Shown: one piece after another, positions 10,494-18,977 of the stretch
How the letters are laid out: each line of letters opens with the position of its first letter
Position numbering within the stretch: the first letter of the stretch is position 1
IMG/VR virus record: IMGVR_UViG_2531839668_000007
DNA from: a virus
Lineage: Duplodnaviria; Heunggongvirae; Uroviricota; Caudoviricetes
Strand: one strand, 5' to 3'
DNA length: 23,844 nucleotides
Translations under genes and position numbers: made by a program
Notes under the pieces: model-generated
Seen by the model: only the letters and a program-made list of their open reading frames with translations
Database searches by the model: none
What the model was told of the DNA's origin: nothing

Positions 10494-11183
10494 TTAATCC
10501 AGTTTTGCAATATTTTGCTGTAAAAATGCTGCCTTTTGTTTTGAACGTGTTCTCGTCACAAGCAATAAAGCATCACTATCAAGCTGTAGAAAAATGTGCT
10601 TCATTGCAACCCAGCGTTCAGTAAATGTCTCGGACCAGTTTTTTGTTGTCACTCCCACCAATGATGCCAGTGTCTGGTATTCATAGGCCTCACGCCCTGC
10701 AAGTTCGCTCTTCACATCCTGTGCAGCCAGCCAGATTAACGTCTTCAGGCGATCCAGTGTCTTACCTGCAATTTTTCTGTTACTTAACAAATCCTTAAAC
10801 TCGCTCCATGCCCATTGCGTTATGGTGACCTGATGCCCCCATCGAACGCTTTCGCTGTAACACCAAAGCAACCATGCTTTCTGATGTTCATCGAGAGACA
10901 AAACCGCGCGGCGCCATGAAGAGGTTGAGAATTCAACCGGGCTGACCAAAGCAATGGATGAACCTTTTGCGTACGACTGCTTACCGGAAGTCGGCGTATT
11001 ATCCAGCGTAATCATCTTGCCAGTTACCACATCCAGAATGCGCGGCTTCTTTCGTTTGTATGTACCAGTATCAAATTGTGCATGCTCCTGCCAGGCTTCG
11101 AGCTGGCCTTTCGTTGCTCCGTTCAAGTCAGCAGTAGCTGCCATAAGTTGCTCACGAACATACTGTAAATATTGGGTATTCAT
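10494..11183 (-). CDS. Putative late-gene antiterminator Q-family protein (non-lambda Q type)
   Basis: Sits between the nin region and the lysis cassette, as Q does in lambdoid phages. The ORF runs to 11267 (GTG), but the ATG at 11181-11183 has a good Shine-Dalgarno sequence (AAAGGA) and gives 229 aa (MNTQYLQYVREQL...). The family call is from memory of ~230-250-aa lambdoid Q homologs, not from an alignment. Confidence 0.55.
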   Translation of the reverse strand: MNTQYLQYVREQLMAATADLNGATKGQLEAWQEHAQFDTGTYKRKKPRILDVVTGKMITLDNTPTSGKQSYAKGSSIALVSPVEFSTSSWRRAVLSLDEHQKAWLLWCYSESVRWGHQVTITQWAWSEFKDLLSNRKIAGKTLDRLKTLIWLAAQDVKSELAGREAYEYQTLASLVGVTTKNWSETFTERWVAMKHIFLQLDSDALLLVTRTRSKQKAAFLQQNIAKLD

Positions 11184-11657
11184 GCAGTAAATCCTTTCTA
11201 TATTTTGGCATAATTCTTCAACATTCGGTAATCGTTCAAAACCGAATCGGGGAAACGACATAAGCACAGGAGCCCCCAGCGACAGCGAAGGAGTTCTGAT
11301 ATATAAGACTCAGACATCATTCATTCCCCGGTTCTCCAATATCTGTTTCACTCATCATCCATAACTACCTGTAATTGCCCCCCCTTTTTTTGTAACAGTT
11401 CTTATATTGCTATATAGAATAGCCATTACTAATGCATTTAAATTTAATAAAATAAAAATTATAAAAACATAAAACACCACGCAAACACACTTAATAAAAA
11501 CACTGTTACATTAAAAGATAATAAAAACCGCAATAAAAAACGAATAAATCAATTGTCTCACGCAATTATAAAACATCATATTGATTACGCACCTTGTATT
11601 ACAAACTCATGTATGTAAAATACGCGCACCATTCAAAAAAAAGGAAGACAATAACAT

Positions 11658-12617
11658 ATGAAAAAAAGTGTCATCGCTGGCGTCTTTATTGCTCTGTCAT
11701 TTACCACGTGTTCAGCTATCGCGAACAGCCTTGCATTATCATTAGCAAATGATGATGCAGGGAAGTTTCAACCAATACTTAATGATATTTATGGCAATAA
11801 ACATGAAAACAGAGATGATTACTCACAAGGCTTATTTCTGGGATATAGCCACGATATCTCAGACTCGAGCCAATTATCTCTCCATATTGCGCAAGATATT
11901 TACTCTCCATCAGGCAGTAATAAAAGACACAACACAGCTGTAACTGGAGACAGAGCTTTTAGTGCATACACTCACACTGGTATTGAATGGAACTCCCTTG
12001 CGAATGACTGGATTCGCTATCGATTAGGTACTGACATAGGTGTTGTTGGCCCCGACGCAGGCGGTCAGAAAGTACAAAATAAAGCTCATGAGATTATTGG
12101 GGCAGAAAAATATCATGCATGGGATGATCAAATAGAGAATCGCTACGGTTATACTGTAAAAGGGATGCTATCCATGACACCAAGTATGGATATTTTAGGT
12201 GCTAATGTTGGATTATACCCTGAAGTTTCTGCTGTTACTGGAAACTTATTTCAATATGTAGCATATGGCGCAACCATTGCCATTGGTAATGATAAAACCT
12301 TCAATTCGGATAATGGCTTTGGTCTGCTGGCTCCCCGTGGTTTAATGCATATGTCCGATACAAGCGGATTCAAATACAAGATTTTTGCAGGTATGGAAAG
12401 ACGAGATGTCAATCGCAACTATACTCTCGAAGGAAAAACAATACAGACGAAACAAACAACAGTATCGCTAAACAAAACTGTTGATGAATATCAAGTTGGC
12501 GCAACAATTGGGTATGCACCTGTAGCCTTCACACTAGCATTTAATAAAGTAACATCAGAATTCAAGACAGGGGATGACTATTCATTTATAAATGGAGCAA
12601 TCACCTTCTTTTTTTAA
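11658..12617 (+). CDS. lpxR: Outer-membrane lipid A 3'-O-deacylase LpxR
   Basis: 319 aa; N-terminal signal peptide (MKKSVIAGVFIALSFTTCSA), C-terminal aromatic beta-barrel signature (...INGAITFFF). Matches Salmonella LpxR over its whole length as I recall it (ANDDAGKFQP, HIAQDIYSPSG, GDRAFSAY, TGDDYSFINGAITFFF). Shine-Dalgarno sequence AAGGAAG upstream; AT-rich; opposite strand to flanking phage genes. Confidence 0.85.
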   Translation: MKKSVIAGVFIALSFTTCSAIANSLALSLANDDAGKFQPILNDIYGNKHENRDDYSQGLFLGYSHDISDSSQLSLHIAQDIYSPSGSNKRHNTAVTGDRAFSAYTHTGIEWNSLANDWIRYRLGTDIGVVGPDAGGQKVQNKAHEIIGAEKYHAWDDQIENRYGYTVKGMLSMTPSMDILGANVGLYPEVSAVTGNLFQYVAYGATIAIGNDKTFNSDNGFGLLAPRGLMHMSDTSGFKYKIFAGMERRDVNRNYTLEGKTIQTKQTTVSLNKTVDEYQVGATIGYAPVAFTLAFNKVTSEFKTGDDYSFINGAITFFF

Positions 12618-12662
12618 CTGAATTGAATTCAATCAAAATAACATAAGTCCAACAAAAACATA

Positions 12663-12700
12663 AAGTGCGAAATGAATGCCAGCTCCATTTATTTCGCACT
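12663..12700. terminator. Long imperfect hairpin between convergent lpxR and phosphatase genes
   Basis: AGTGCGAAAT ... ATTTCGCACT, a 10-bp perfect inverted repeat with inner partial pairing, between the lpxR stop (12617) and the phosphatase stop (12829). T-rich on the minus-strand side. Confidence 0.35.
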
Positions 12701-12828
12701 ATAAAAGATTAAAAGTTGCAATAAAATAATAAAATGACTCAGTTACGAAAACCAATAAACTGTGGCCAGTAGTGAGTCGCTCATCATCGGGCTTTTTGGC
12801 GAATGAAATTTAGCTACGCTTTCGAGTC

Positions 12829-13494
12829 TCATGCGCCTTCTCCCTGTACCTGAATCAATGTGAGGTTTCCGCAGAACACTGCGCCAGTATCGATATACAT
12901 CTGGTTGGCAAATTTGAGTGGTTTCACTGCTGGCGTATGACCAAAGATGAACGTGTCCGCGCCTTTGATTTCTTTCACGATCCCGTCTTGTGAGTTGCCG
13001 ATTCGTTCGCGGTTCCAGATTACCTGCTGAGGATCAACTGGCTTTCCAAATTCGTATTCGTTACAAGGATAATCGGCGTGGCAAATGACATATTTTTTAT
13101 CTTTGCTCACCAGTTCGATGATTAACGGAAGTTCTTCTGCTTTATGGGCAAGAACTTTAGCCAGAGTCTCTTTGTCGTAATCGAGATTAAAGAACCAGCC
13201 ACCGCCATTAAGCAGCCAGTGATTAACGTTTCCACGCTCTGATAAGCCATCAATCATCATTTGCTCATGGTTTCCACGCACAGCTCTGAACCAGGGGAAT
13301 GTGATTAATTCCAGACATTCGACGTTCTCTGTACCGCGATCAACCAAATCGCCAACCGAGATGAGCAGGTCTTTTTTGGTGTCGAATCCAATCGTATCCA
13401 GTTTGTTCATCAGGTTCGTGTAGCATCCGTGCAGGTCGCCAGCTACCCAAATATTTCGGTATTTGCTGCCATCAATTCTTTCGTAGATATTCAT
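12829..13494 (-). CDS. Lambda-type Ser/Thr protein phosphatase (lambda orf221 / PPase homolog)
   Basis: 221 aa; phosphoesterase motifs GDLHG, GDLVDRG, GNHE; near-identical to lambda phosphatase as recalled ([30 protein letters not shown]...). The ATG overlaps the ninG stop. Confidence 0.9.
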
Positions 13495-13952
13495 GCAGCC
13501 TCACTTCTGCTGTTTCGCAGGTCTTTGAGTTTCTGTTGGTACTCTGCCTTGATCGCCTTGCACTCTTCGACAGTCCAGCGATGGCGGTTATGGTTTGATT
13601 CGATTTCGTCTACTGCTTCCTGCCCGATGCGGCTAATCAGTTCGACGCGATACGGAACGAGATTTCCGCTTTTGTGCTGGTTGCACACCACGCATTGCTT
13701 GTGAATATTGCGTTCATCAAATCGGAGTTGAGGTGCCGCAGCAGTTGTCCGGTAATGTCCGGCATCCCACTGAGCAGACGTGAGCGTTCCGCACGAGATA
13801 CATGGTAAGTCGCGGTCTCTTTCTCTGATGAAGGCGTTTACGGCTTGTTGGGCTTGTTTAATCCAGTAACTGCGGGGCTTTAAGGCGAGTTTTCGAATCT
13901 TAAGTTTATCTTTCTGTTTCTGCTCCTCTCGTCGTCGTTTCTTCTCTGCTGC
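13491..13952 (-). pseudogene. ninG: ninG 3' fragment (N-terminal ~50 codons missing, no start codon)
   Basis: The minus-strand frame is open from a TAA (plus 13953-13955) and reads [153 protein letters not shown], matching lambda NinG from about residue 50 to the end as recalled. The ORF-track start at 13691 is simply the first in-frame GTG. Confidence 0.8.
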
Positions 13953-13954
13953 TT

Positions 13955-14149
13955 AACGATGAAACCATGCAGGAGATTAACACTCTGCTGATCGCCCTGG
14001 ATAAAACATGGGATGACGACTTATTGCCGCTCTGTTCCCAGATATTTCGCCGCGACATTCGCGCATCGTCAGAACTGACACAGGCCGAAGCAGTGAAAGC
14101 TCTTGGATTCCTGAAACAGAAAGCCACTGAGCAGAAGGTGGCAGCATGA
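13955..14149 (+). pseudogene. bet: bet (Red-beta) 3' fragment, last ~64 codons only
   Basis: Reads [64 protein letters not shown], matching the C-terminus of lambda Bet as recalled. Homology starts 2 nt from where ninG homology ends on the other strand. The stop overlaps the exo start as in lambda. Confidence 0.8.
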
Positions 14150-14826
14150 CACCGGACATTATCCTGCAGCGTGCCGGGATCGACGTGAGAGCTGTCGAAC
14201 AGGGAGATGATGCGTGGCACAAATTACGGCTCGGCGTCATCACAGCTTCAGAAGTTCATAACGTAATAGCAAAACCCCGCTCCGGAAAAAAGTGGCCTGA
14301 CATGAAAATGTCCTACTTCCACACCCTGCTGGCTGAGGTTTGCACCGGTGTGGCTCCGGAAGTTAATGCTAAGGCGCTGGCCTGGGGAAAACAGTACGAG
14401 AACGACGCCAGAGCCCTGTTTGAGTTTACTTCCGGCGTGAATGTTACTGAATCCCCGATCATCTATCGCGACGAAAGTATGCGCACCGCCTGCTCTCCCG
14501 ATGGTTTATGCAGTGACGGCAACGGCCTTGAACTGAAATGCCCGTTTACCTCCCGGGATTTCATGAAATTCCGGCTCGGTGGTTTCGAGGCCATAAAGTC
14601 GGATTACATGGCCCAGGTGCAGTACAGCATGTGGGTGACGCGAAAAGATGCCTGGTACTTTGCCAACTATGACCCACGAATGAAGCGTGAAGGCCTGCAT
14701 TATGTCGTGGTTGAGCGGGATGAAAATTACATGGCGAGTTTTGACGAGATGGTGCCGGAGTTCATCGAAAAAATGGACGAGGCACTGGCTGAAATTGGTT
14801 TTGTATTTGGGGAGCAATGGCGATGA
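14146..14826 (+). CDS. exo: Lambda exonuclease (Red-alpha)
   Basis: 226 aa; near-identical to lambda Exo as recalled ([40 protein letters not shown]...GFVFGEQWR). Confidence 0.9.
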
Positions 14827-18299: not shown

Positions 18300-18977
18300 A
18301 TGTCCATCATTTTTAATGGACACTATCGTATGAAACACCGGACCTGGATCACTGAAGCTTTACGTCTTCACTTTGAAGAACATTTACCCCGGGTTGTGGC
18401 CGGGCGTCGCCTGGGTGTACCAAAATCAACAGTTTGTAGTATGTTCGTGCGCTTTCGGAGAGCTGGCCTTTCGTGGCCTTTGCCCGCAGGCATGTCGGAG
18501 CAGGAACTTGATGCCTGCCTTTACGGACAATTTTCCACGGTACCAGTCGTACGTCCTGAAAGCACCGTTATATCCGAAGCCCCCGTGGTAAAAAAACGTC
18601 CCCGGCGGCCCAACTTCCCTTATGAGTTTAAAATCGCCTTAGTGGAGCAGTCACTGCAGCCCGGAGCCTGTGTGGCGCAGATCGCCCGGGAAAACGGAAT
18701 CAACGATAACCTGCTCTTCAACTGGCGCCATCAATACCGGAAAGGTGGCCTGCTGCCTTCCGGAAAAAATATGCCGGCACTGCTTCCCGTGACGTTAACG
18801 CCGGAGCCGGATAATAAAATCCCGGCCCCCGCACAGGAACCAGAGCAGATAAATACACCGTCCGACAGTCTGTGTTGTGAGCTGATTCTGCCGGCCGGAA
18901 CTCTCAGGCTTAAAGGTAAACTGACGCCGGCGTTATTACAGACACTTATCCGCGAAATGAAAGGGAGCAGCCACTGA
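18300..18977 (+). CDS. tnpA: IS66-family accessory protein TnpA (orfA)
   Basis: The C-terminal half (RRPNFPYEFKIALVEQSLQPGACVAQIARENGINDNLLFNWRHQYRKG) has the helix-turn-helix region typical of IS66 orfA. The true start may be internal: the N-terminal ~75 aa carry an IS21-like motif (LSWPLPAGMSEQELDACLY) and may not be translated. The stop overlaps the tnpB ATG. Confidence 0.65.
   Translation: MSIIFNGHYRMKHRTWITEALRLHFEEHLPRVVAGRRLGVPKSTVCSMFVRFRRAGLSWPLPAGMSEQELDACLYGQFSTVPVVRPESTVISEAPVVKKRPRRPNFPYEFKIALVEQSLQPGACVAQIARENGINDNLLFNWRHQYRKGGLLPSGKNMPALLPVTLTPEPDNKIPAPAQEPEQINTPSDSLCCELILPAGTLRLKGKLTPALLQTLIREMKGSSH

Follow-up and report, generated by a model that had tools for sequence, protein, structure and literature searches.

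Why should a prophage of Escherichia coli carry a gene for an enzyme that trims lipid A, and does that gene serve the bacterium, the phage, or neither? The question is raised by a 23,844-nucleotide stretch of viral DNA (Caudoviricetes; IMG/VR record IMGVR_UViG_2531839668_000007), referred to here at its full length as the window. Within it, a gene of the LpxR family (lpxR) lies among phage genes and is read from the opposite strand. We consider it very probable that the locus is a lysogenic-conversion cassette, or moron, encoding an active LpxR. The case begins with the identity of the product, continues with the limits and relatives of the cassette, and then turns to its expression and to the roles that it could play.

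The lpxR gene and its predicted product

The reading frame and its signal-peptide segment were located as follows:

11658-12617, plus strand: lpxR coding sequence (ATG start, 319 codons plus stop; RefSeq WP_000750155.1)
11658-11723, plus strand: Sec signal peptide of 22 residues, MKKSVIAGVFIALSFTTCSAIA, with an A-x-A cleavage motif ending in A-I-A (read from the sequence)

RefSeq names WP_000750155.1 a 'lipid A deacylase LpxR family protein'. When the 319-residue product was searched against Pfam, LpxR (PF09982) was the sole family matched (E = 6.8e-40; 137.4 bits against a cut-off of 26), with residues 10-318 covering profile positions 2-320 of 323. A search of the PDB returned Salmonella LpxR (3FID; E = 3.6e-153). 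Residues 24-319 aligned with residues 2-296 of chain A, gaps amounted to one single residue, and 220 of 296 positions (74%) were identical. The first-pass annotation of this DNA, made from the letters alone, had called the gene full-length and had pointed to Salmonella LpxR for comparison; the open reading frame, the Pfam match, and the end-to-end match to the Salmonella mature chain bear this out. Among PHROGs the product belongs to phrog_2309 (E = 3e-230), an entry labeled 'function unknown' in that collection.

The mature chain begins at N23, cleavage being read between MKKSVIAGVFIALSFTTCSAIA and NS. The resulting offset of 22 residues between precursor and mature numbering agrees with the structural alignment, in which residue 2 of the 3FID chain is paired with residue 24, and is the offset used in PMC6863877. 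The C-terminus reads ...ITFFF and ends in phenylalanine; by inspection of the sequence, the product carries both the signal peptide and the C-terminal aromatic residue that mark outer-membrane targeting. Active-site and substrate-binding residues were taken from the lists in PMC6863877 and PMC6260217, and all nine (9/9) were conserved:

N31 (mature 9): Ca2+ ligand, present
D32 (mature 10; Asp10 in mature numbering): Ca2+ ligand, present
D33 (mature 11): present
S56 (mature 34): present; Thr in Salmonella, either Thr or Ser being accepted
K89 (mature 67): present
Q140 (mature 118): present
H144 (mature 122): catalytic His, present
E150 (mature 128): present
Y152 (mature 130): present

Missing catalytic His or Asp residues, or membership of a different barrel family, had been named at the outset as grounds against the assignment; every residue was in its place, and no other family was found. 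Judged by its sequence, the product is an intact LpxR, a lipid A 3'-O-deacylase with the predicted fold of a 12-stranded outer-membrane beta-barrel. Lom and Ail barrels are frequent in lambdoid prophages, and the annotation of the O157:H7 counterpart includes one, but nothing directly favors the idea that the product is a PagL, Ail/Lom, or OmpX barrel misread as LpxR. A Pfam search that finds LpxR only, together with a whole-chain alignment to 3FID at 74% identity, refutes that idea, and we give it practically no credence.

PagL is an unrelated 8-stranded barrel with a Ser-His-Glu triad that cleaves off the position-3 acyl chain rather than the one at 3'. Like LpxR, it resides in the outer membrane, deacylates lipid A, and lowers TLR4 signaling; no PagL sequence match appeared in the Pfam search. 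The relative with a crystal structure is LpxR of Salmonella Typhimurium (STM1328; 3FID), reportedly the subject of work by Reynolds in 2006 and Rutten in 2009. The two proteins share their length (319 residues), the 74% mature-chain identity, the catalytic His, the Ca2+ ligands, and a C-terminal FFF. The Salmonella gene differs in being chromosomal, in the region from thrS-infC-rplT to pfkB with no prophage, in having Thr at mature position 34, and in its DNA, which is 68% identical over the coding sequence only.

The mechanism that we propose has four steps. The precursor would be exported through Sec and lose its 22-residue signal peptide; the beta-barrel assembly machinery would then insert the chain into the outer membrane as a 12-stranded barrel. 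In the outer leaflet, the enzyme would hydrolyze the 3' ester of lipid A and release the 3'-acyloxyacyl unit, with His144 (mature H122) activating water and Ca2+, held by Asn31, Asp32, and Ser56, polarizing the carbonyl. The tetra-acylated lipid A that results would be a weaker agonist of TLR4/MD-2. Published enzymology (3FID; PMC6260217) describes the same activation of water by His122, Ca2+ at Asn9, Asp10, and Thr/Ser34, and release of the 3'-acyloxyacyl unit. As relayed in four later papers (PMC6393859, PMC6863877, PMC9263587, PMC7649339), Ogawa et al. 2018 (Cell Microbiol 20:e12806) reported that lpxR of enterohemorrhagic E. coli (EHEC) O157:H7 is a 3'-O-deacylase gene, that Pch and Ler activate it together with the LEE (locus of enterocyte effacement), and that inflammatory and phagocytic responses through TLR4 increase on its loss. 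In a set of 224 EHEC genomes, Rojas-Lopez et al. 2019 detected lpxR in 97%; they proposed its product as vaccine antigen MC001 and reported the same six active-site residues as conserved (PMC6863877). That LpxR remodels lipid A and dampens innate recognition, as first suggested for this locus, is supported by this literature on the identical O157:H7 protein.

The cassette, its prophage, and their relatives

The genes and spacers around lpxR are these:

10494-11183 (or to 11267 with an upstream GTG), minus strand: Q82-type late-gene antiterminator, the left neighbor (PF06323 Phage_antiter_Q, 1.7e-91; phrog_304, 2e-108)
11198-11320, minus strand: ylcG-like open reading frame of 40 residues, directly upstream of Q82, an order shared with phage 82 and DLP12 (RefSeq 'YlcG family protein'; phrog_2705, 2.1e-12; homology to phage 82 orf45)
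11321-11657 (337 bp): AT-rich upstream spacer between the divergent lpxR and ylcG-Q82, 29.1% GC
~11330-12761 (about 1.43 kb): foreign cassette comprising the upstream spacer, lpxR, and the hairpin-bearing downstream spacer (from the limits of phage 82 and lambda homology, and GC contrast)
11641-11647, plus strand: Shine-Dalgarno-like AAGGAAG, 10 nt before the ATG (from sequence; a ribosome-binding site is annotated at the homologous spot in phage 434)
12618-12761 (144 bp): AT-rich downstream spacer between the convergent lpxR and Q stub, 27.8% GC
12743-12832, minus strand: lambda-type Q remnant of 29 codons, its start overlapping the ninI stop as in lambda (phrog_21867, phrog_127)
12829-13494, minus strand: NinI-type Ser/Thr protein phosphatase of 221 residues, the right neighbor (PF00149, 5.6e-16; NF008516, 2.3e-81; lambda NinI homologue in the phage 434 annotation)

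The limits of the cassette were set by homology on either side. To the left, the rus-orf45-Q82 segment resembles phage 82 and PhiR47_2 (88-90% at the DNA level) as far as about 11329; to the right, homology to lambda Q starts at 12762, with some 70 nt of Q left at 12762-12832. We therefore place the cassette at about 11330-12761. By these homologies, its insertion point is a mosaic junction where a lambda-like nin region meets a Q region like that of phage 82. The Q stub is lambda-like for its first 24 or so codons and then meets a stop; positions 12762-12828 match lambda 43890-43956, as well as many lambdoid Q genes, at 97% identity, and RefSeq labels the stub a partial antitermination pseudogene. 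Its sequence marks it as a scar, the lambda-like Q having been replaced by the lpxR cassette and ylcG-Q82. Phage 434 has this stub too, and an 84%-identical copy stands beside a variant of lpxR linked to cdt genes.

Two properties expected of a moron were observed. Extra DNA lies between genes that adjoin each other in related phages, with the caveat that this cassette sits at a mosaic junction, and its base composition is deviant (28-39% GC in the cassette, 46-52% around it). The lpxR coding sequence itself has 39.4% GC and 30% at third codon positions, as compared to 46% for Q82, 46% for ninI, and 52% for exo. The opposite-strand position between phosphatase and Q-like genes had been recognized in the first-pass annotation, and lpxR does run on the plus strand with NinI and Q82 both on the minus; the AT-rich flanks and the gene's own Shine-Dalgarno sequence that it described were also recovered. 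Its span for the feature, 11268-12828, holds good as one containing lpxR and its spacers but not as one containing only those, as the ylcG-like frame and the Q stub overlap it too.

The lambda genes bor and lom, the examples behind the moron concept of Hendrix and Juhala, are extra genes of deviant composition that have their own expression signals and lie between conserved phage genes. By analogy, lpxR would be another prophage-borne gene for an envelope protein affecting the interaction of host and pathogen. It differs from bor and lom in its location, which is not the late region but the early-right operon, where it stands immediately upstream of Q and is read in antisense.

The nearest relatives of the whole arrangement are in phage 434 and in E. 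coli O157:H7. In phage 434, gp65 (OL657226) is annotated 'outer membrane beta-barrel lipid A deacylase LpxR'; identity over the entire 1.56-kb interval is 99.2%, and the genes follow the same order (NinI, N-terminal fragment of Q, oppositely oriented lpxR, YlcG-like, Q82). The difference is that 434 is a complete, viable phage in which the transcript from pR crosses the cassette in antisense to reach Q82, whereas the window is without that promoter. In O157:H7 strain DEC4E, the LpxR encoded by the ybhC prophage has the same accession (WP_000750155.1) and the prophage has the same integration site, the same flanks (NinI, Q stub, YlcG, Q82), and the same effectors (nleH1-1, nleC, nleB2). Its upstream spacer is about 99% identical, and only a handful of positions distinguish this spacer among O157:H16, O157:H7, and phage 434. 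The window, in contrast, has an O157:H16 host and a more eroded prophage, with a ninG'/'bet junction, an IS66-family insertion, and the loss of most structural genes; the DEC4E prophage has a ninE/'bet junction and retains far more structural genes.

That host is E. coli O157:H16 98-3133, to which the window is about 100% identical over its full length (NZ_CP051001.1). The two are not identical letter for letter: the first difference falls at position 700 (G vs A, inside nleH1-1), and the corresponding stretch of the record is 23846 nt long as compared to 23844. The prophage is lambdoid and integrated beside ybhC, with nleH1-1, nleC, and nleB2 at its far end. With these three effector genes in the window, it was fair to describe lpxR as a second virulence-linked cargo beside the effectors. 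Erosion is extensive, with many partial coding sequences; most structural genes are partial. An IS66-family element (ISCro1-like tnpA, tnpB, and transposase; 18302-20917, plus strand) lies in the early-left region and is absent from the O157:H7 version. A truncated ninG meets a truncated bet at about 13954 (13493-13954, minus; 13954-14151, plus), the intervening N, cI, cro, O, P, pL, and pR having been deleted. The different junctions here and in O157:H7 suggest either successive or independent deletions.

Two possible RNA genes were observed to the left of Q82. The first, at 9106-9311 on the minus strand, is a full-length but sub-threshold match to STnc100 (RF02076; 37.7 bits against a gathering threshold of 47, E = 3.9e-6). 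Situated between the DUF3927 and holin genes, it ends in a GC-rich hairpin followed by U8 and overlaps an annotated plus-strand 'hypothetical protein' at 8844-9242. A 2026 preprint (10.64898/2026.05.13.724894) describes the small RNAs (sRNAs) PasD1 and PasD2 as structural relatives of STnc100 encoded beside the holin/lysozyme operon, and reports a conserved neighborhood consisting of the Q antiterminator and LpxR, within at most 10 kb in over 98% of cases. The element at 9106-9311 is probably a PasD-family sRNA gene, and lpxR, Q82, and the PasD/STnc100-like sRNA seem to travel as one module. The other candidate, at 8840-8929 on the plus strand, is a weak match to Esr41 (RF02676; 32 bits against a gathering threshold of 102, E = 0.001); matches to Esr41 near PasD are described in that preprint as well (10.64898/2026.05.13.724894).

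The upstream spacer, lpxR, and the downstream spacer were each found, as single copies, in 620 of 5426 complete E. coli genomes, always on the chromosome and at no less than 97-98% identity; for the downstream spacer, 615 of the 620 copies were at least 99% identical. In the phage collection, the full interval was found only in two phage 434 records (99.2% identical). A single-protein scan of genome contigs returned one locus, in Citrobacter. Homologues of the protein were distributed as follows, by amino acid identity:

99%: E. albertii and E. coli
85%: E. coli
80%: a further homologue
72-73%: Salmonella
71%: Cronobacter
70%: a second E. coli lineage, 315 residues
69%: Yersinia enterocolitica

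Two diverged lineages were examined in their contexts. The 85% variant (84% at the DNA level) was seen at loci L004 (4212-5370) and L005 (ABLQUB010000046.1, AAWGNV010000063.1), where it lies 1.8 kb from cdtABC (cytolethal distending toxin), between cdtABC and an insertion sequence. Its homology to the window runs from the Shine-Dalgarno sequence through the hairpin and into the Q stub; as homology begins only at the Shine-Dalgarno sequence, the upstream regulatory region differs from that of the window. In the library searched, no paper linked lpxR with cdt prophages. The 70%, 315-residue lineage (locus L007, 1130-2077; JAUKKY010000041.1) occupies another lambdoid prophage, where lpxR follows a PF06530-type Q and a DNA methylase on their downstream side and adjoins a homologue of the membrane-protein gene at window positions 9566-10310. 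The insertion position there is different from that in the window. Because the contexts of the diverged variants differ, LpxR-family genes seem, by these comparisons, to have been acquired by E. coli prophages on at least two occasions and at two or more positions.

Transcription and the downstream hairpin

Because the prophage is without N, cI, cro, O, P, pL, and pR, lpxR could be transcribed solely from a promoter of its own, which is presumed to lie in the 29%-GC spacer at 11321-11657. From there the gene would be transcribed alone, away from ylcG-Q and head-on to the early-right transcript, an arrangement that would let it work from a silent or, as here, a decayed prophage. A moron is also expected to bring its own promoter and terminator; promoter-like matches were found at the level of shuffled sequence, and a strong hairpin was found that has no U-tract on the lpxR strand. 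One promoter-like match, TTGTAA-18-TATGAT at 11604-11575 on the minus strand, faces ylcG-Q82. Matches to such a consensus were no commoner than in shuffles, but in a prophage without pR this candidate would be the sole nearby route to expression of Q82.

In LEE-positive E. coli, expression of lpxR would be tied to Ler and Pch. The gene is placed within the Ler/LEE modulon (PMC9263587) and co-varies with LEE in expression work (PMC7649339), both transcriptome papers reporting regulated expression in Shiga toxin-producing E. coli (STEC) and EHEC; across strains, Arimizu et al. 2019 found a strong association between lpxR and LEE (PMC6724679). By analogy with AT-rich acquired DNA in general, the region is probably silenced by H-NS, with Ler and Pch relieving the silencing.

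In Salmonella, lpxR is repressed by the sRNA MicF at the ribosome-binding site and within the coding sequence (PMC4651636). The MicF sequence used for duplex prediction was confirmed by Rfam beforehand. Against the 5' region of lpxR in the window, the best duplex was -13.3 kcal/mol, a value reached by 101 of 300 shuffles. The top predicted pairing site for the MicF 5' end is AAUGAUGAUGC, at about 11745-11760 on the plus strand (codons A30-N31-D32-D33-A34), over the catalytic N-D-D. This site recurs in three diverged lpxR genes, the Salmonella and cdt-linked genes included, although the N-D-D codons are under protein constraint. At gathering thresholds, Rfam matched nothing in the whole window; an E-value search of 11150-12900 returned only a chance-level match to Ysr206 (E = 2.4), and the spacers and hairpin matched no known RNA family.

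The long hairpin downstream of lpxR, given as 12663-12700 in the first-pass annotation, was found one nucleotide further in:

12664-12700, plus strand: stem-loop with a 15-bp stem (one G.U pair) and a 7-nt loop (-19.1 kcal/mol, z -5.6, 0 of 200 shuffles as stable)

It stands midway between convergent reading frames, 47 nt past the lpxR stop and 43 nt past the stop of the Q stub. The plus-strand stem leads into an A-rich tail, UAUAAAAGAUUAAAAG, without a U-tract; the minus-strand tail is U-rich, UUUAUGUUUUUGUUGG, and the fold there is -16.4 kcal/mol (z -2.7), its stem containing an A.C mismatch. No Rho-independent terminator, for which a GC-containing stem would have to run straight into a U-rich stretch of the transcribed strand, was found, and a simple scan called one on neither strand. 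In the 84%-identical variant at L004, both arms of the stem are kept and the loop is changed from GCCAGCTCC to GCTTATTTC; the single change in the stem again gives G.U on the plus strand and A.C on the minus. That both imperfect pairs fall this way favors selection on the plus-strand RNA, with the limit that these are two positions in two lineages only. Within E. coli, the flank holding the hairpin is nearly invariant (615 of 620 copies at least 99% identical), so there is no covariation signal to read.

The reading that we favor is that the hairpin is probably the 3' end of the lpxR mRNA or a stabilizer of it. A different assignment, which we rate as rather unlikely though worth keeping in view, makes it a terminator of the phage early-right transcript on the minus strand, between the nin genes and Q82, and not a terminator of lpxR; Q82 would then need N antitermination, and read-through in the uninduced state would be kept from running antisense into lpxR. 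The U-rich minus tail UUUAUGUUUUUGUUGG, as compared to the plus tail UAUAAAAGAUUAAAAG, speaks for this assignment, as do the position midway between two convergent frames and the circumstance that the pR transcript of phage 434 must cross the hairpin on its way to Q82. The minus-strand stem is, however, the weaker of the two (-16.4 vs -19.1 kcal/mol; z -2.7 vs -5.6), the second change in the diverged variant is once more G.U on the plus strand and A.C on the minus, and the annotators of 434 placed terminators elsewhere and none at the hairpin. A bidirectional role is possible. The hairpin was also considered as the terminator of a PasD sRNA and rejected in that role, as the STnc100/PasD-like element maps to 9106-9311.

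Rival roles and biological meaning

Is a conversion cassette for immune evasion the best account of the locus as a whole? It could be argued that lpxR mainly serves the phage, protecting the lysogen from superinfection or membrane stress through changes in lipid A acylation, outer-membrane packing, or vesicles, with immune evasion as a by-product. The same cassette is present in phage 434, a fully functional laboratory lambdoid phage from sewage with no pathogen source; LpxR has a PHROG family of its own (phrog_2309); and E. coli prophages hold distinct lpxR variants at other positions. Lipid A deacylation has also been linked to vesicle formation in Salmonella, though for PagL (PMC4958258). 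Nevertheless, we regard service to the phage as an improbable main role: no data on phage resistance conferred by LpxR were found in the literature, and lpxR tracks LEE and its regulators in E. coli populations, which points to interaction with the host. The two roles are not mutually exclusive. The decay of the prophage, with its partial coding sequences, IS66 insertion, and missing immunity region, invites a more dismissive account in which lpxR is a decaying or inactive passenger that is intact by chance. This we consider very improbable. The reading frame is full-length, every catalytic residue is present, and the protein is identical to that of O157:H7; the cassette is at least 98% conserved, in single copy, in 620 genomes of many serotypes while its phage neighbors decay; and lpxR is transcriptionally regulated in STEC (PMC9263587, PMC7649339).

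Several points weigh against an active, self-expressed LpxR, and the favored account must carry them. Enzymatic activity, immune effect, and control by Ler/Pch come from literature on the identical O157:H7 protein and would apply to this strain by carry-over, and the content of Ogawa et al. 2018 is cited second-hand. In Salmonella, LpxR is reported to be largely latent in the membrane and of low activity, such that presence of the gene is no proof of deacylated lipid A (PMC6260217). A scan for sigma-70 promoters returned 5 sites where 6.6 were expected from shuffles, and no lpxR promoter could be named from it. The hairpin, which is not followed by a U-tract on the strand of lpxR, is no canonical terminator for that gene. 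Even so, a lysogenic-conversion cassette encoding active LpxR is the account that we favor.

A further and rather speculative idea, which we think has only a slight chance of being correct, is that the antisense cassette and its hairpin form a regulatory insert in the lysis-timing circuit of the phage, modulating Q82 in viable phages such as 434. The early-right transcript of 434 and its relatives has to get through the hairpin and then travel 1.4 kb head-on against lpxR before reaching ylcG-Q82. Activation of lpxR by Ler/Pch, or its relief from H-NS, could then delay or lower Q82 through transcriptional interference, and activity of the virulence regulon would be coupled to the outcome of prophage induction.

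Much about this gene was already known. It is annotated in RefSeq and in phage 434, was studied functionally by Ogawa et al. (2018), has been put forward as a vaccine antigen, and has served population genomics as a marker (PMC6724679). What is added here is modest: the exact limits of the cassette at a lambda/phage-82 junction, the leftover stub of lambda Q, the argument from strand asymmetry in the hairpin, and the diverged lpxR variants at other prophage positions. As for the bacterium, LpxR lowers the endotoxicity of lipid A and is co-regulated with the type III secretion system in EHEC and enteropathogenic E. coli. The presence of lpxR near nleH1-1, nleC, and nleB2 marks the prophage remnant as an island of virulence cargo, and the O157:H16 host carries the same immune-evasion gene as O157:H7.

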